Under the pieces are notes generated by a model. The model did not search any database, was not told the DNA's origin, and was given only the letters and a program-made list of their open reading frames with translations. The position numbers and the translations under genes were made by a program. Source: a virus (taxonomy: Duplodnaviria; Caudoviricetes). From it: a DNA stretch of 64,000 bases. Positions 3,547-56,969 of the stretch are shown piece by piece. Positions within the stretch are counted from its first letter, which is position 1. The number at the start of each line of letters is the position of its first letter. The DNA is taken from IMG/VR virus record IMGVR_UViG_3300044655_001017. One strand, written 5' to 3'.

Positions 3547-4161
3547 ATGAACGTATGTAAACACTGCCAACAACCTGCACTTTATCCTCCAAAAACAAAA
3601 TGGGGAGGTTGGTGTTGTGTTGAAAGATTTTATGATTGTACTGGATTTAAGTTAAAACAAAAACTTGGAAAAGAACAATCATCTAAAATTACCGGATTTA
3701 TGCCTAACAATGTTCCTTGGAATAAAGGTAATATAGGTAATGGAACATTTAATGGAAAAACACATACTGAAGTAACTAAAATTTCTATTTCAAATTCAAT
3801 GAAAGGTAATCGAAATGCAAATCATCGAGGTGATCGGCAAAGTTATTACAATAACATTAGAATGGATTCAAAATGGGAAGTCGGTGTAGCTAAGTATTTT
3901 GACAACAATAAAGTTGAATGGAAATATAATGTACAAGGGTATCAATTATCTAATGGCAACTATTATTACCCAGACTTTTTTATATATGAAAATGGAAATT
4001 TTGTAAAATTAGTCGAAGTTAAAGGTTATTTTAGAGAATCAAACAAGGCTAAATTTGAAATGTTCCTTAATGAATATTCACATATTCAAATAGAGCTTTG
4101 GCAAAGAACAATGCTCTATGATTTAGGAATAATAAATAAATCAGGTTATGTTATTGAATAA
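3547..4161 (+). CDS. free-standing endonuclease, PD-(D/E)XK-like with NUMOD-type linker
   Basis: N-terminal Cys cluster, PWNKG motif, YYPDFFI...LVEVKGY catalytic pattern. Confidence 0.65.
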   Translation: MNVCKHCQQPALYPPKTKWGGWCCVERFYDCTGFKLKQKLGKEQSSKITGFMPNNVPWNKGNIGNGTFNGKTHTEVTKISISNSMKGNRNANHRGDRQSYYNNIRMDSKWEVGVAKYFDNNKVEWKYNVQGYQLSNGNYYYPDFFIYENGNFVKLVEVKGYFRESNKAKFEMFLNEYSHIQIELWQRTMLYDLGIINKSGYVIE

Positions 4162-4181
4162 CAGAAACCACCAATTATAAG

Positions 4182-4255
4182 TGTCCTTTAGTGTAATGGT
4201 AGCACAGCAGATTTTGATTCTGCTAGTATAGGTTCGAGCCCTGTAGGGACTGCCA
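4182..4255 (+). tRNA. tRNA-Gln(UUG)
   Basis: Cloverleaf, GCAGA-TTTTGAT-TCTGC anticodon arm, GGTTCGAG, CCA. Confidence 0.9.
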
Positions 4256-4263
4256 AATATTAT

Positions 4264-4338
4264 TCCCTAATAGCTCAGTGGTAGAGCAGGCGACTGTTAA
4301 TTGCCCGGTCGGTGGTTCGAGCCCATCTTAGGGAGCCA
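4264..4338 (+). tRNA. tRNA-Asn(GUU)
   Basis: TCCCTAA/TTAGGGA, loop CTGTTAA, CCA. Confidence 0.92.
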
Positions 4339-4343
4339 AACAA

Positions 4344-4647
4344 GTTTATTGGGATGTAGGCTTAAAAGCAGCCATCATTTAAAGAGTGACCCGCAAACTT
4401 TGCTAAAGTGATACTTAAACTTACGGCAGTGCGAAAGCAACCTGTGAGCGTATGTAACTGCGTTAATATAGAGTCCGGCAATATGCCTTAATGGCTGTTA
4501 CGAGTCTAAAGTGATTGCTATATTAAACGGATGAGGGAGGTACACCCTAATGTTAAGGATGTTTTTCCTAATAGTTAAACTTAACATGTCCGAGAGTTAA
4601 TTAGGATGTCGCAGACAGGTCTTTGGCGTAACAGCACACCACTAAAC
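4344..4647 (+). ncRNA. 23S rRNA L11-binding domain (H43-H44) mimic with ~240-nt insertion
   Basis: GGGATGTAGGCTTAAAAGCAGCCATCATTTAAAGAG (4351-4386) and GCGTAACAGCACAC (4626-4639) match the two halves of 23S nt ~1055-1105. Confidence 0.7.
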
Positions 4648-4748
4648 AACAGAAAACTTTCTCCATCAACGAAAGTGTAGTAGTTGTCATTTTTAAATGA
4701 TAGCTATTACTAAAGCACTAAATATCAAGTGTTTTAGTAATAGTTATT

Positions 4749-4824
4749 GCCAAAGTAGCTCAATAGGTAGAGCACTTCACTTGTAATGAAGATGTTGCGG
4801 GTTCAATTCCTGTCTTTGGCTCCA
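4749..4824 (+). tRNA. tRNA-Thr(UGU)
   Basis: GCCAAAG/CTTTGGC, loop CTTGTAA, CCA. Confidence 0.92.
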
Positions 4825-4832
4825 TATATTTA

Positions 4833-4920
4833 GGAAGGTTGCCAGAATGGTTAATGGAGCAGTTTGCTAAACTGTCGACCTGAAAAGGTCGTATAGGTTC
4901 GAGTCCTATACTTTCCGCCA
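4833..4920 (+). tRNA. tRNA-Ser(GCU)
   Basis: GGAAGGT/ACTTTCC, loop TTGCTAA, long variable arm, CCA. Confidence 0.92.
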
Positions 4921-5006
4921 TACAATAAATGATTTAATTAGTACTTGACTTATACAAAATTTAATGTATAATACACGCATTAGTTAAACAAATTACAGAT
5001 CATGTT

Positions 5007-5668: not shown

Positions 5669-5720
5669 CACAATACATTACTAAATGTAACCCAACATAG
5701 TACGCGAATACTATAGTTTT

Positions 5721-5773
5721 TGAATGCTAACAGCAATTATTACTTTCAATGGTGAATTTAATGCATTCAGTTA
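5721..5773 (+). ncRNA. Y-RNA-like scaffold copy G with Glu(UUC)-like anticodon hairpin
   Basis: TGAATGC/GCATTCA stem, TAACAGCAA bulge, inner loop CTTTCAA. Confidence 0.65.
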
Positions 5774-5795
5774 TAGTATTTGCATACAACAGTTT

Positions 5796-5853
5796 TGGAT
5801 GCTAACTGCAACTTTAAACTTTCTTTTTATGAAACTTAAAATGCATCCAGTTA
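5796..5853 (+). ncRNA. Y-RNA-like scaffold copy H
   Basis: TGGATGC/GCATCCA stem, TAACTGCAA bulge, inner TTTC-TTTTTAT-GAAA hairpin. Confidence 0.65.
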
Positions 5854-6357: not shown

Positions 6358-6633
6358 ATGACATCAATTCAAGCAAAACACATTTTAGTAGAAACAGAAG
6401 ATCAAGCAAATGACTTGTATAATAAAGTAGTTAACGAAGGTGCAGACTTTGGCGCACTTGCTGCTGTAAATAGTAAATGTCCAAGTGGCCAAAACGGTGG
6501 TGACTTAGGACCGTTTGGTCGCGGTCAGATGGTTAAACCATTTGAAGATGCAGCTTTTGAATTAGGAATTGGTAACTTTAGTAAACCTGTTCAAACACAA
6601 TTTGGTTGGCACGTTATTCAACGTACTGGCTAA
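6358..6633 (+). CDS. ppiC: parvulin-type peptidyl-prolyl isomerase
   Basis: AKHILV, DFGALA...SKCPSGQNGGDLGPFGRGQMVKPFEDAAF, VQTQFGWHVI. Confidence 0.95.
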   Translation: MTSIQAKHILVETEDQANDLYNKVVNEGADFGALAAVNSKCPSGQNGGDLGPFGRGQMVKPFEDAAFELGIGNFSKPVQTQFGWHVIQRTG

Positions 6634-7161: not shown

Positions 7162-7178
7162 ACACAACATAAACAATA

Positions 7179-7217
7179 AGTTTATTAACAGCACATAATT
7201 TAATATAAACTGAGGAG
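7179..7217 (+). promoter_or_regulatory. scaffold copy K in the 5' UTR abutting the RBS (putative autoregulatory operator)
   Basis: AGTTTAT/ATAAACT stem, TAACAGCAC bulge, 3' G is the first base of GAGGAG. Confidence 0.6.
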
Positions 7218-7224
7218 AACACAC

Positions 7225-8637
7225 ATGAGTACATTTATCGAAGCAATTGCAAATCAAGAAGATCGTACCACTAACGGTATGAAAGCACGTAAATCAACCT
7301 CAAGTGCATTAGTCGATCTCTTCTTTAAGGCAGGTGCCTCGAGAGGTAAAAACATCACACCTGAGTTTGTTGCCGCCTATGTAGAAGATAAAGATCTTGC
7401 ATTACGTATTGCAGCTTGGGTACGCGATGTACGTGGTGGTGCAGGCGAACGCCAGTTGTTTAGAGATATTTTATTGTATCTTGAAAACTCAGATCCAGAT
7501 GCTGCTAAGAAACTTGCAGCTAAAGTTCCTGAACTTGGACGCTACGATGACTTACTTGTGTTCAAAACACAAAACTTAAAGGACTATGCATTTGCGTTAA
7601 TTAAAGATGCATTAGAAGCGCAAAATGGACTTGCTGCTAAATGGATTCCACGTAAAGGAGATACTGCGGTACAGTTACGCAATTACTTAGGGTGGTCTCC
7701 TAAACGTTATCGCAAAACACTTGTTTCACTTACTAAAGTAGTTGAAACACAAATGTGTGCTAACCAATGGGACACTATTAACTTTAGTCATGTTCCATCT
7801 GTAGCATCTTCACGCTACAAAAAAGCATTTGCTCGTCACACTGACAAGTATGCTGAATACATTGCTAAATTAGTTAAAGGTGATGATCCAACTGTTAAAG
7901 TTAACGCAGGTGCGATCTATCCATATGAAATCGTTAAGGGTTTAAGTGGTTGGTCTCAACCATCACTACTTGAAAAACAACACATTATTGCACAATGGGA
8001 CGCGTTACCTAACTATGTTGGTGATGCAAGCATTTTACCATTAGTTGATGTATCAGGATCCATGGGTTGTTCTGCAGGTAAAAGCAAAACTGTTACTTGT
8101 ATGGATGTTGCATTATCTTTAGGAATATACTTAGCAGATAAAAATGCTGGTAAGTTTAAAGATACATTCTTAACATTTAGCTCTAAACCAGAGTTAGTTA
8201 CACTAAACGGTAATGTAGTTGAGAAGTATGCGCAGATGTCAAAAAGTGATTGGCAAATGGGCACTAACTTACATGCAGCTTTTTCTAAGATTTTAGAAGT
8301 TGCAGTTAATGGTAATGTACCTGTTGAAGAAATGCCAAAGATACTTTTAATATTATCTGACATGCAATTTGATGCTTGTGTAACACATGATGATTCTGCA
8401 ATAAAAATGATTTGTCGTAAGTATGAAGATGCAGGATATACAGTACCACAAGTTGTGTTTTGGAACTTAAACTCACATGACAATGTGCCAGTTAAGTACA
8501 ATGCAAAAGGTGCAGCATTAGTAAGTGGATTTAGTCCAAGTATTATGACAAGTGTACTTGCAGCTGATATGGATGACTTTACTCCACAAGCAATTATGTT
8601 ACAAACAATTATGAATCCTAGATATGATATAGGATAA
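7225..8637 (+). CDS. DUF2828-family protein (TROVE/Ro60-like helical domain plus vWA MIDAS domain)
   Basis: RDVRGGAGERQLFR, LAAKWIPRKG, DVSGSM MIDAS, ILSDMQFD, VFWNL, VSGFSPS motifs. Confidence 0.8.
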   Translation: MSTFIEAIANQEDRTTNGMKARKSTSSALVDLFFKAGASRGKNITPEFVAAYVEDKDLALRIAAWVRDVRGGAGERQLFRDILLYLENSDPDAAKKLAAKVPELGRYDDLLVFKTQNLKDYAFALIKDALEAQNGLAAKWIPRKGDTAVQLRNYLGWSPKRYRKTLVSLTKVVETQMCANQWDTINFSHVPSVASSRYKKAFARHTDKYAEYIAKLVKGDDPTVKVNAGAIYPYEIVKGLSGWSQPSLLEKQHIIAQWDALPNYVGDASILPLVDVSGSMGCSAGKSKTVTCMDVALSLGIYLADKNAGKFKDTFLTFSSKPELVTLNGNVVEKYAQMSKSDWQMGTNLHAAFSKILEVAVNGNVPVEEMPKILLILSDMQFDACVTHDDSAIKMICRKYEDAGYTVPQVVFWNLNSHDNVPVKYNAKGAALVSGFSPSIMTSVLAADMDDFTPQAIMLQTIMNPRYDIG

Positions 8638-14691: not shown

Positions 14692-15693
14692 ATGTCAGCT
14701 ACAATTGAAACGGTAAAAGCAGAAGCTAAAGAAGCTTCACTTTTGAACAAACCAGCTATGCTCGCAGGTGCAGCACTATATATAGTGTTTTACGGGTGGG
14801 TTCGTTGGTATGAGGGTGTTTATGGATGGTCAGCTGGTTTAGACTCATTTGCGCCAGAATTCGAAACATACTGGATGAACTTCCTATATATTGAAATGGT
14901 ACTAGAAATCGTAACCGCTTCTGTATTATGGGGTTATATCTGGAAAAGTCGTGATCGTAAAGTGATGTCAATCACACCACGTGAAGAATTGCGTCGTCAT
15001 TTCACACATTGGGTATGGTTAGTAATGTACGGTATCGCAATTTATTACGGTGCTTCATACTTTACAGAACAAGACGGTACATGGCATCAAACGATTGTCC
15101 GTGATACTGATTTTACACCAAGTCACGTTATTGAGTTTTATCTAAGTTATCCTATTTACATCATCACAGGCGTTTCTGCATTCTTATATGCTAAAACACG
15201 CTTGCCTACCTACCAAAAAGGTTTACCATTACAATACTTAGTATCAGTAATTGGACCTTTCATGATTCTTCCAAACGTTGGTTTAAACGAATGGGGTCAT
15301 ACTTTCAACACAGGAAGCTCATTATAGCAATGTAATGATGAAAACTCTGTGAAAACGGTGAACATCCAGAACGGACAATACCGTGCCAAGCTTAGAAATA
15401 AGAAGGTGTAACGACTATCCCGAAAGGGAGTACACTCAAGTGAGTGGAAGCGCAGAGCAACCTAAATGGTTGATGAGATAGTCTGCTCTAACTGGGAACA
15501 GTTAGCAGTTCATAAGAGAACGGTATAAGCGTAACGAACTTATATGAACATAGGCTGGTTTATGGAGGAGTTGTTTGTAGCCCCTCTACATTACGGGTTT
15601 GTATTTTTTGGATGGGCTGCACTTGGTGTATTAGGTGTAGTAAATATCGAAGTACAAGCAATATCTAAATTGTTGAAAAGCGATTTAGCTTAA
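14692..15693 (+). CDS. pmoC: particulate methane monooxygenase subunit C, two exons (14692-15305 and 15555-15693; 250 aa spliced)
   Basis: EQDGTWHQTIVRDTDFTPSH and LNEWGHTF|WFMEELFVAPLHYGFVFFGW PmoC signatures; AGGAG RBS before ATG 14692. Confidence 0.93.
15306..15554 (+). mobile_element. ORF-less group I intron (IA2-like), 249 nt
   Basis: 5' exon ends in U and intron ends in G; P3 CTCTGT/GCAGAG, P4 ACGGT/ACCGT, P7 GACTAT(15413)/ATAGTC(15478), P7.1, P7.2, P8, P9; removal restores the frame. Confidence 0.9.
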
Positions 15694-53708: not shown

Positions 53709-53782
53709 TCAAAATATTGACAGGTCAGGTCTTGTATAGTATAATTACTATACAAACTGACCTTTTTTATGAGAAATTAACC

Positions 53783-54616
53783 ATGACAGACTTTTATTCA
53801 AAATTAGGTGTGTCCAACGACGCATCACAAGACGATATTAAAAAAGCATATCGTTCGTTAGCAAACAAACATCACCCTGACAAAGGCGGAAACCAGGCAA
53901 CGTTTAAAGATATTTCAGTAGCGTATGATACGTTAAGTGATCCACAAAAACGTCAAGAATATGACATGCAACAAAATGGACACCAATTTAGTGGATTTGG
54001 AGGGGGACAACATTTCCATTTTGATATGAATGATGTATTTGGACAGCATGCGCATTTTACAAATATGTTTGGAAATGGGTTTAGACAACAACAACGTAAT
54101 AAAGATTTAAATCTACAAGTGCAAGTAACATTAGTTGAATCATTTAACGGTAAACAAGTAGATGCAACATTTAATTTACCCAGTGGTAGACCTCAAACCG
54201 TTTCTATAAACGTACCTGCAGGCATTGATCACGGAGACGCTATCCGATATAACGGATTAGGTGACGATTCTATCTCCGGTATTCCTCGAGGAAATCTTAA
54301 TGTTACTATTCATGTACTGCCAGATCGTAACTTTAGACGTGAAGGTAATGATTTATATACTACATTAGATATTAATCCAATTGAAGCAATGATTGGATGT
54401 ATTAAACCGGTTAACACTATTACCGGAGGAACTATTGATTTAACAATTAGACCTGGAGTAGAAACAGGAACAAAATTTGCAAACGGTTCCGGTTTTACTA
54501 ATTTACATAGTAAACAAGTTGGACAATTTATTACAATTATTAATATTAAAGTTCCTGCAATTACTGATCCTTCATTAATTTCACAATTAAAAATATTAAA
54601 CAGTCAAATAAATTGA
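53783..54616 (+). CDS. DnaJ/CbpA-type co-chaperone (J domain without Zn finger)
   Basis: DFYSKLGV...KHHPDKGG, G/F-rich linker, DnaJ C-terminal domain. Confidence 0.92.
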   Translation: MTDFYSKLGVSNDASQDDIKKAYRSLANKHHPDKGGNQATFKDISVAYDTLSDPQKRQEYDMQQNGHQFSGFGGGQHFHFDMNDVFGQHAHFTNMFGNGFRQQQRNKDLNLQVQVTLVESFNGKQVDATFNLPSGRPQTVSINVPAGIDHGDAIRYNGLGDDSISGIPRGNLNVTIHVLPDRNFRREGNDLYTTLDINPIEAMIGCIKPVNTITGGTIDLTIRPGVETGTKFANGSGFTNLHSKQVGQFITIINIKVPAITDPSLISQLKILNSQIN

Positions 54617-54674: not shown

Positions 54675-56969
54675 ATGGTTGAACCAAGCGAAAATTTACA
54701 AGCAATTTTTGATAAAGCTATCTCGTCTGCAAAAAATATGCATCACGAGTATGTAACACTTGAGCATGTATTGTTCGCAATGCTCATGGAGGATAAAGCA
54801 TTTACTGACTCACTAGACCATTTTGGTGCTGACACTTTATTTTTAAAAAATGTAGTTCTTGACCATTTGCAATCAAAATGTCACGAAATTACTACAGTTG
54901 ATGTAGTCGTTAAACCTAAGAAAACACAAGCAGTTGAACGCTCATTAAATCGCGCATTTACGCAAGTGTTGTTTAACGGTGGCACACGTATTGAACCGGC
55001 TGACTTCTTTTTAGCTATGTTGGGAGAAAAACGATCTTGGGCGTTTTATTATGTAGCACAAGTAAACATTACTAAAGAGAAATATGCCGAATACGTTCAA
55101 AATGTTACGTTAGATGAAGATACACCTGCAGGTGCAGCTAAACCTAATTCACAAACACACAAAGCGTTACAGGCGTATACTACTAATTTAAACGAGGAAG
55201 TTAAGAATAGTAAAATTGATCCTGTTATTGGCCGTGTAGATGAATTAGAACACATCGCACTAGCACTCGGACGTCGCAGTAAAAACAATGTTATTATGGT
55301 AGGTGATCCGGGCGTAGGTAAAACTGCAATTGCTGAAGGGCTTGCATTTAATATTGTAAATGGATCAGTTCCTGAGTTCCTTATAGATTATACTGTGTAT
55401 AATTTAGACATTGCTGCAATGTTAGCAGGTTCTAAATACCGAGGTGATTTTGAAGAACGTTTTAAACAAGTAATCAAATCATTACAAAAACTTGGTAAAT
55501 GCGTATTGTTTATTGATGAAGCACACATGATTAGTGGCGCAGGTGCATCAGGTAGTTCATCAAACGACTTAGCAAATATGATGAAACCTGCATTAAGCAA
55601 AGGCAATATTAAAGTTATTGCATCAACTACATGGGACGAGTATCGTAAACACTTTGAGAAAGATCGGGCATTGATGCGCAGATTCCAACGTATTACAGTT
55701 GATGAACCTACTCAAGAAATGACTTTACAAATTCTTAAAGGTATTAAGAAATATTACGAAGGACATCACAAACTTAAAATTAAGGACGAGGCATTGCAAG
55801 CGTCAATTAAATTATCTGTAAAATATCAAGCAGATAAAAAATTACCTGATAAAGCAATTGACTTAATTGACTGTGCGTGTTCACGATTTAACTTAAAAAT
55901 TGCTGATCAACGGGTAGTTACTGAAGCTGATATTCAGTTTGAATTAGCTAAAATGGTTAACATGCCAGTTGAACAAATTATGCAAACTGAAACTAGTTCG
56001 CTAATTACCCTACAAGAAAAACTTGAAGCTGAGGTATTTGGTCAAGATACTGCGTTAACTGAAATTGTTGATAAAATTATGGTTGCACAAGCAGGTTTAA
56101 AATCAGAAAATAAACCAATTGGCAGCTTTGTATTTATGGGGCCTACCGGTTGCGGTAAAACTGAGACTGCTAAGGCACTTGCTAAACATTTAAATACTAA
56201 ATTATTGCGATTTGATATGTCAGAATATCAAGAGAAACACAGTATTAGTAAACTGATTGGTAGTCCTCCTGGTTATGTAGGATTTGAAGATAATGCAGGT
56301 CTTTTGATTACACAAATTCAAGAGAATCCTAATGCTGTACTATTGTTTGACGAGATTGAAAAATCGCATCCTGACGTATCTACTGTATTATTACAAATGA
56401 TGGACAACGGGTTTATTACAGGATCAAATGGTAAACAAGCTGATTGTCGTCACATTGTATTAATTTTAACTACTAATGCCGGCGCTCAAACTGCAGAAAA
56501 GAATCAAATTGGTTTTGGTGCTCAAGAAAAAGACTATTCAGATGCAGATCTTAAGAAATTCCTATCGCCTGAATTCCGTAACAGATTAGATGGTGTTATT
56601 ACATTTAACAAGTTAAGTAAAGATTCAATGGTAAAAGTTATTAACAAGTTCATTGATGAAGTACGTGATCAGGTTAAAGACAAAGGTATTCGTATTAAGA
56701 TTGATAAGTTTGCAACTAATTGGTTGTTAGAAAAAGGTTTTGATCCTAAAATGGGTGCTAGACCACTACATCGCATTATTGATAAAGAGATCAAACGTGA
56801 TCTTGCTAAAATGATGTTATTTGGTGATCTTAAAACTGGCGGGTGGCTAACTGTTACAGTAGTAGATGATAACATTTCACTTGTTGCTAAACCTAAGTTA
56901 GCTAAAGTACCACTACTTACTGCTAAAGAAGTACTTACTAGTGTATTTAGTGTTGAAGATGCAGATTAA
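54675..56969 (+). CDS. clpA: ATP-dependent Clp protease ATP-binding subunit (ClpA-like)
   Basis: Clp N-domain, GDPGVGKT and GPTGCGKT Walker A motifs, IGF loop, no ClpB middle domain. Confidence 0.9.
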   Translation: MVEPSENLQAIFDKAISSAKNMHHEYVTLEHVLFAMLMEDKAFTDSLDHFGADTLFLKNVVLDHLQSKCHEITTVDVVVKPKKTQAVERSLNRAFTQVLFNGGTRIEPADFFLAMLGEKRSWAFYYVAQVNITKEKYAEYVQNVTLDEDTPAGAAKPNSQTHKALQAYTTNLNEEVKNSKIDPVIGRVDELEHIALALGRRSKNNVIMVGDPGVGKTAIAEGLAFNIVNGSVPEFLIDYTVYNLDIAAMLAGSKYRGDFEERFKQVIKSLQKLGKCVLFIDEAHMISGAGASGSSSNDLANMMKPALSKGNIKVIASTTWDEYRKHFEKDRALMRRFQRITVDEPTQEMTLQILKGIKKYYEGHHKLKIKDEALQASIKLSVKYQADKKLPDKAIDLIDCACSRFNLKIADQRVVTEADIQFELAKMVNMPVEQIMQTETSSLITLQEKLEAEVFGQDTALTEIVDKIMVAQAGLKSENKPIGSFVFMGPTGCGKTETAKALAKHLNTKLLRFDMSEYQEKHSISKLIGSPPGYVGFEDNAGLLITQIQENPNAVLLFDEIEKSHPDVSTVLLQMMDNGFITGSNGKQADCRHIVLILTTNAGAQTAEKNQIGFGAQEKDYSDADLKKFLSPEFRNRLDGVITFNKLSKDSMVKVINKFIDEVRDQVKDKGIRIKIDKFATNWLLEKGFDPKMGARPLHRIIDKEIKRDLAKMMLFGDLKTGGWLTVTVVDDNISLVAKPKLAKVPLLTAKEVLTSVFSVEDAD

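Follow-up and report, generated by a model that had tools for sequence, protein, structure and literature searches.

Why would a phage carry, inside a cluster of tRNA genes, a copy of a functional domain of the ribosome? The locus that raises this question lies in a window of 64,000 nt (the whole stretch of DNA that was analysed), from the Caudoviricetes record IMGVR_UViG_3300044655_001017, a jumbo phage from lake water. At 4344–4647 on the plus strand is a non-coding RNA of roughly 304 nt in which both halves of the 23S rRNA GTPase-associated centre (GAC) can be read directly. In bacterial 23S rRNA this centre corresponds to E. coli positions 1051–1108, a 58-nt fragment that binds uL11 and thiostrepton. 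The element is part of a seven-tRNA cluster: tRNA-Asn (GUU; 4264–4338, +), a likely co-transcript, ends 5 nt before it, and tRNA-Thr (4749–4824) begins 101 nt after it, both identified with ARAGORN and Rfam. No ORF longer than 39 aa overlaps the element, and its relatives show insertions and deletions of 1–2 nt, which together indicate that it is non-coding.

All parts of the element are on the plus strand. A closing stem replaces the top of helix H42: its 5’ strand, GUUUAUUG (4344–4351), pairs with its 3’ strand, CACUAAAC (4640–4647), at seven of eight positions by standard pairs, the exception being a single U·C mismatch, and the mature 3’ end is likely just beyond. Within the stem, the 5’ half of the GAC, GGAUGUAGGCUUAAAAGCAGCCAUCAUUUAAAGAGU (4352–4387), corresponds to E. 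coli 1055–1090 and contains G1055, G1056, H43 (1057–1081), the turn U1082–A1086, and G1087, A1088, G1089 and U1090. The H43 hairpin (4354–4378) reads AUG UA GGC UUAAAAGCA GCC AU CAU, with UUAAAAGCA as its 9-nt loop. An insert domain of 234 nt (4388–4621), specific to this lineage, then leaves H44 between 1090 and 1091 on a base helix of GACC (4388–4391) and GGUC (4618–4621). A UUUG linker (4622–4625) joins that helix to the 3’ half of the GAC, GCGUAACAGCACAC (4626–4639, E. coli 1091–1104), also a direct read, in which the H44 hairpin is G1091 C1092, GUAACA, G1099 C1100, followed by A1101, C1102, A1103 and C1104. An earlier note on this DNA had described a match to H43, an H44 half about 240 nt later, an insert bracketed by GACC/GGTC, and a closing stem, all set between tRNA-Asn and tRNA-Thr without other rRNA. 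Every part of this layout held – the H44 half starts 238 nt past the H43 half, the closing stem has 8 bp, and the limits given for the element, 4344 and 4647, are the exact ends of that stem.

The core is identical to E. coli rrlH at 44 of 50 positions, and the six differences are U1061A, G1068A, A1089G, A1090U, U1097C and U1101A. All of the bases that make tertiary contacts are kept: U1060/A1088, U1082/A1086, G1071, C1072 and A1073, G1091–C1100, C1092–G1099, and G1093/A1098 (the roles of these bases are those in the 1HC8 and 1MMS structures). H43 has two stems of 3 bp each, the U1060/N1061 bulge and the 9-nt loop UUAGAAGCA. A 35-nt H43 pattern allowing up to three mismatches occurs once in the window and not at all in 100 shuffled sequences; the match to the GAC is not due to chance. 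Rfam detects it weakly, with a sub-threshold match of LSU_rRNA_bacteria (model positions 1096–1145, 20.3 bits, E 3e-4) that covers only 4352–4394, and no other Rfam 15 model matches the element up to E 10.

The phage element thus has the secondary structure and the tertiary-contact nucleotides of the bacterial GAC. It differs from the rRNA in its place between tRNA genes, in the opening of H44 at 1090/1091 by the 234-nt domain, in a YUUUR linker and A1101 instead of the rRNA arrangement, and in a plain covarying stem where rRNA has H42 with its kink-turn. A continuous H44 inside a 23S rRNA gene is not what is found here – the element stands alone – and Rfam 15 finds no other rRNA sequence in the 64 kb. 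Since H44 is split by the insert and the window is without other rRNA, the element is domain-like yet not rRNA.

The same plan was found on about 160 viral contigs in two scans of IMG/VR. In scan 1, the H44-side word TTGGCGTRACAGCACAC was found in 97 stretches (101 occurrences), and 95 of the 101 had an H43-like motif 92–407 nt upstream, making them composite elements. Scan 2 was independent, anchored on H43 without reference to H44; it added 74 loci, about 67 of them with an H44-like hairpin 27–338 nt downstream, and in none of the loci was H44 directly adjacent as it is in real rRNA. Many of the contigs are large: 38 of the first 80 listed in scan 1 are longer than 100 kb. With BLASTN, the split arrangement was also located in three jumbo phages, GAP32, CBB and XaC1, each time in a gap without annotation. 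The family plan has six features – a closing stem, H43, an insert of 27–400 nt after GAGU (1087–1090), the YUUUR linker, H44, and A1101 – and the window has all six. The length and sequence of the insert differ completely between lineages, and the core is constant.

In 596 Gb of prokaryotic genomes the word had 63 matches. Fourteen of these were composite, mostly in metagenome bins; the other 49 had no H43 motif upstream and were set aside, as were matches in Paenibacillus and Staphylococcus ‘phage’ records, which are genuine 23S rRNA. Because only 14 of the 63 prokaryotic matches are composite, the family is essentially viral and specific to phages. No description of it was found in Rfam 15 or in full-text literature searches, so that the element does not fall into a non-coding RNA family described there.

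A covariance model built from short members, R1, scores GAP32, CBB, XaC1 and the window's relatives at 76–90 bits, and genuine 23S rRNA at 53–65 bits. A relative 98% identical to the window's element (L124) aligns to R1 end to end with 90.2 bits. The alignment of the window itself was limited to 4342–4496 (50.9 bits, E 2.4e-12) whether or not filters were used, since R1 does not cope with the long insert.

Two comparisons with rRNA argue for one old origin of the family and not for repeated capture from hosts, as judged from these sequences. One is that the family shares its insert site, its YUUUR linker and A1101, which rRNA lacks; the other is that GAP32 and CBB have GAGU at 1087–1090, where the rRNA of their enterobacterial hosts has GAAA. 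There is also a sub-class in which the insert contains a second ribosomal motif. In six long members (L012, L016, L049, L072, L083 and L242) the insert has a bulged-G/GAGA hairpin, AGUACGAGAGGA, like that of the sarcin-ricin loop (SRL), and it sits on covarying stems; these six RNAs therefore imitate the ribosome's factor-binding site in both of its RNA halves. The window's element has no such hairpin at up to three mismatches.

The fold is under selection. Pairs were counted in 77 unique members and in 63 members collected without reference to H44. Among the 77, the closing stem covaries, with one of its positions UA in 32, AU in 15, GC in 10 and CG in 9; the 1058–1080 pair is UA in 25, AU in 12, GC in 12 and CG in 2; and the 1082–1086 pair is UA in 30 and CG in 15. 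U1060/A1088 is unchanged in 51 of 51, and A1077 and UAA1083–85 are invariant. Among the 63, the 1092–1099 pair shows compensatory changes from CG to UA, and 56 have CUUUG, UUUUG, AUUUG, UUUUA or CUUUA as the linker. A1101, where rRNA has U, is conserved in 92% of them and can pair with U1090; A1067 is kept in 89% and A1095 in 95%. Applied to 27 short members, RNAalifold recovers the closing stem, H43, the insert base helix and H44, with compensatory changes at 14 of the 21 predicted pairs, including all eight pairs of the closing stem. The insert base helix covaries as well (GC in 17, AU in 9–10). These results support the main claim of the earlier note, that the element copies the structure of the uL11-binding GAC outside rRNA and adds a large domain to it.

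Eight variants of the window's own lineage are known, and they show how the insert changes. A 76-nt block (4456–4531) is identical in all eight when they are aligned. Because this block does not vary, its helices – a possible 8-bp helix (4464–4471/4518–4525) and hairpins – are predictions from energy. Elsewhere the insert has a GAAA hairpin (4430–4439), a second hairpin (4534–4548) and a helix at 4550–4557/4580–4587; this helix has compensatory changes within the lineage, as have 4537/4545, 4413/4455 and 4393/4610. The minimum free energy of the insert is not better than that of shuffled sequences (z = −1.0), and the remaining fold is a weak prediction from energy. RNAalifold, run on the full-length element, mis-folds the core.

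Several identities for the insert were tried and rejected. Local alignment to E. coli 23S, 16S and 5S rRNA gave scores of 23, 20 and 18, at the level of shuffled sequences (mean 21.7), and a 5S-like stretch was discarded because it lies in a segment that is variable in L123. A kink-turn at the base of the insert was considered by eye: the strand with the bulge would suit one, but the strand facing it forms ordinary pairs. Group I and group II introns have no model match at E up to 10 in 4300–4760. A diversity-generating template is not indicated either, as the window has no second H43 segment and R1 finds no further copy.

Six sites have three states among the eight variants: core positions 1061, 1068 and 1097 (window 4358, 4365 and 4632), the loop bases 4543 and 4544, and 4449. 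The three core sites are near the exposed A1067 and A1095/A1096, and may reflect relaxed constraint or diversifying selection beside A1067 and A1095. Across 310 nt, 1061 and 1068 are the sole differences between the window and L008. The insert changes less in this lineage than do some loop positions of the core.

The word TAACAGCAC in the H44 half is shared with an element at 7186, and the earlier note had wondered whether it linked the GAC copy to a bulge in that scaffold. It is a coincidence: the window has 2 copies with 0.99 expected, and the C at 1097 is not conserved, being C, U or A in the closest relatives. The element at 7186 belongs to a separate family of small elements, unrelated to the H44 word, that share YAACNGCAM. 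This word occurs 35 times in the window (10.8 expected), for example at 1684, 2448, 2824, 5728, 5803 and 7186, with several copies just past the 5’ strand of short intergenic stems (5714–5770, 5790–5852 and 7177–7213).

Linkage to tRNA genes is a property of the family and not only of the window. A tRNA gene lies within 500 nt of the element in 50 of 94 loci, always on the same strand and often at a distance of 0–13 nt; this fits release of the RNA by tRNA-processing enzymes. Between tRNA-Tyr and tRNA-Gln of the window's cluster is an ORF of 204 aa (3547–4161) with a DUF1064 domain, endonuclease-like, which may be a mobile nuclease. Downstream of the element, a spacer follows position 4650; its 30 nt are deleted in L110 and L123, and elsewhere it is 30–40 nt long and variable. 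Next comes a predicted A/U-rich hairpin of 19 bp (4690–4748, +) that abuts tRNA-Thr at 4749. This hairpin is conserved in all relatives, with changes from C-G to U-A and from G·U to G-C. It is probably a processing signal of the precursor, outside the mature RNA, and may be a site for RNase III or another enzyme that processes the tRNA precursor. The flanks of the module formed by element, spacer and hairpin vary: L008, L121, L122 and L190–L192 have another tRNA upstream or none, and the downstream sequence also differs between the window and close relatives. That close relatives carry the module in different flanks suggests that it moves by recombination.

Many metagenomes of lake water contain the stretch in the window, as do metatranscriptomes of freshwater. 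Four runs in two studies gave RNA contigs (4180–4643, 4292–4675, 4180–4650 and 4191–4646) that span the element and indicate its transcription; they join it to tRNA-Gln and tRNA-Asn, cross it in full without a joint, and have no loose ends on the 3’ side. No RNA contigs were found over 4690–5000. The 3’ end is probably just after the closing stem, the contigs being a hint to this, as carry-over of DNA is possible; they likewise hint that at least some of the transcripts run from tRNA-Gln through tRNA-Asn into the element. Excision of the insert, which the earlier note had raised, is contradicted: the contigs of all four runs cross the insert unspliced and no Rfam intron is present, and the insert is therefore retained in the RNA.

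What the RNA might bind was approached through the genes that accompany it. An all-versus-all BLASTP of the ORFs at 94 loci gave no recurrent neighbour gene, with no cluster extending beyond four near-identical loci. The survey of phage records with a family member covered 50, of which 23 are at least 90% complete; none of the 50 has uL11 or RelA_SpoT, and one has an EF-Tu-type GTPase (GTP_EFTU). The earlier note had proposed a decoy for L11, RelA or an rRNA-targeting toxin, and no homologue in these phages singles out one such target. The bL12 model matched proteins of 113–129 aa in six of the 50 (G007, G010, G018, G019, G020 and G034; L116–L120), but these are unrelated small proteins whose sole common feature is the LTG(L/W/Y)GLKEAKD motif of the bL12 C-terminal helix, with which bL12 contacts GTPases. 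The records nearest to the window phage have no bL12-like protein. DUF7788 is present in nine of the 50, including GAP32 and CBB. In the window it is part of a DUF2828/DUF7788 protein of 470 aa (7225–8637, 2.6 kb downstream), TROVE/vWA-like and annotated by PHROG as ‘RNA-binding protein’; occurring in only nine of the 50 phages, it is not an obligate partner. The window also has genes for protein folding and turnover: GroES, a parvulin-type PPIase, DnaJ and a Lon-like ATP-dependent protease (1179–1484, 6358–6633, 53717–54616 and 54675–56969).

Since the phages share no recurrent gene for a partner protein, that partner is probably supplied by the host and common to all bacteria. The range of the family leads to a similar expectation: this large and old family is restricted to phages, most of them big, whatever the phylum of the host, and its target is therefore probably some universal part of bacterial translation.

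The explanation we favour, tentatively and at somewhat less than an even chance, is that the element is an off-ribosome imitation of the GAC that binds a host component, most likely uL11 and possibly the stalk with it. Enzymes of tRNA processing would release the element from the tRNA precursor, and the RNA would accumulate as a stable species acting away from the ribosome. Its putative target is free or exchangeable uL11, possibly with the stalk proteins uL10 and bL12, and the resulting RNP would withdraw stalk proteins from the ribosome or display them elsewhere. Steps that depend on the stalk, such as activation of RelA or recruitment of GTPases, might then be altered to the benefit of the phage, although the benefit is conjecture, and the 234-nt insert would be a second, lineage-specific domain. 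As a small domain, the GAC folds autonomously, and it must have this tertiary fold for L11 to bind (PMC6239185). We favour uL11 because this fold is what it recognises, and because the bases that build the fold are kept more strictly than A1067, which contacts factors. Against a uL11 decoy is the abundance it would need to compete with tens of thousands of ribosomes. The six members with an SRL copy also count against it, as they point to recognition by a factor or toxin and not by uL11 alone.

A broader form of binding to uL11 is conceivable, though we consider it unlikely: the RNA might form a free-standing ‘stalk base’ with host uL11 and with uL10/bL12 or a phage bL12-like protein, some members adding the SRL. 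It would be a replica, off the ribosome, of the docking site for translation factors, trapping GTPases or RelA or soaking up immune toxins directed there. If so, the rapid turnover at 1061, 1068 and 1097 would be the trace of an arms race with whatever binds there.

The element could also be a decoy against a host defence, competitor toxin or thiopeptide that is directed at the GAC and binds, cleaves or modifies H43/H44, sparing the ribosomes that translate phage mRNA; this too we think doubtful. Phage tRNAs are thought to counter defences that target tRNA, and a decoy among phage tRNA genes would parallel them. A toxin with such a target exists, since Tre23 ADP-ribosylates H44 at 1095–1098 and blocks EF-G (PMC8661411). 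The sub-class with a copy of the SRL, the other classic target of ribotoxins, speaks for a decoy as well. Weighing against it, a stoichiometric decoy is poorly suited to a catalytic toxin, we know of no anti-phage system aimed at the GAC, and, given how different the hosts of these phages are, the weapon would have to be almost universal. The three-state sites 1061, 1068 and 1097, beside the exposed A1067 and A1095/A1096, would suit an arms race, but fast sites such as 1061 are also among the least constrained in rRNA (PMC6239185), so relaxed constraint explains them equally well.

Rather less probable in our estimate is that the RNA imitates the docking site for factors, binding EF-G, EF-Tu, IF2, RF3 or RelA off the ribosome, alone or with stalk proteins, so that host translation would be retuned or the stringent response blocked. 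A1067 and A1095 are kept in 80–95% of members, and the six long members with GAC and SRL carry both halves of the factor-binding site. EF-G reportedly binds oligoribonucleotides of the GAC and of the SRL in isolation (Munishkin and Wool 1997). The small proteins with the factor-binding motif of the bL12 C-terminus, encoded by six of the 50 phages, may also point this way. Across both sets of members, however, A1067 is A in 80–89% and G or C in 11–20%, where in rRNA it is near-universal. The window's own element lacks the SRL, and the affinity of factors for isolated GAC RNA is weak relative to that of uL11.

In another reading, which we regard as improbable, the core is a scaffold only: the stable GAC junction would clamp the ends, block exonucleases and display the insert, which would carry a lineage-specific function. 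Inserts that vary wholly by lineage in length (27–400 nt) and sequence around a constant core fit this, as do the invariant 76-nt block and an insert that changes less than some of the core loops. A clamp, though, would need neither the exact tertiary contacts of rRNA nor the exposed loop bases A1067, A1095, G1093 and A1098 to be conserved in phages of many hosts, and the members with inserts of 27–45 nt imply that the core alone appears sufficient.

That the element has no function of its own, as a captured rRNA fragment with an intron or mobile insert or as a decaying remnant, is very improbable: the core is rRNA-derived and interrupted, and this phage does have a group I intron elsewhere (15296–15505; Rfam, 69 bits), but no Rfam intron lies in the insert at E 10, the RNA contigs are unspliced, and strong covariation, family signatures foreign to rRNA, the number of loci (about 160) and purifying selection on an invariant block of the insert all speak against it.

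Binding to uL11 and its alternatives can be addressed directly, because assays for uL11, thiostrepton and EF-G exist. Three cultured phages (GAP32, CBB and XaC1) carry the family, and biochemists have studied no small rRNA domain more closely than its core. If the element is a decoy or a factor trap, it would add a new level at which phages control host translation or immunity, and would offer a natural RNA scaffold that folds by itself and accepts inserts of 27–400 nt.

Copies of tRNAs and of a few ribosomal proteins are known from viruses. As far as we could find, there is no description of a viral RNA that acts in trans and reproduces an entire functional domain of rRNA. Among phage RNAs, the closest in setting are GOLLD, ROOL and the stable RNAs of the T4 tRNA cluster, which are also phage-borne, structured and adjacent to tRNA genes. 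GOLLD and ROOL, both in Rfam 15, do not match the element at E 10, and we know of none of these RNAs that imitates an rRNA domain. Bacterial and phage Y RNAs, which associate with Ro60 (TROVE), likewise combine a long terminal stem with a module that mimics an RNA of translation. That module is tRNA-like in YrlA and rRNA-like in the phage element, which has no match to Rfam Y_RNA. The leaders of ribosomal-protein operons (the L10(L12)4 site of rplJ, and those for L1, S8, S15 and L20) are nearest in principle, as they copy a protein-binding site of rRNA off the ribosome, though no Rfam leader family matches the element. These leaders are cis-acting parts of cellular mRNA that reproduce only a local motif, whereas the phage element is linked to tRNA genes, reproduces the whole tertiary domain and putatively acts in trans.
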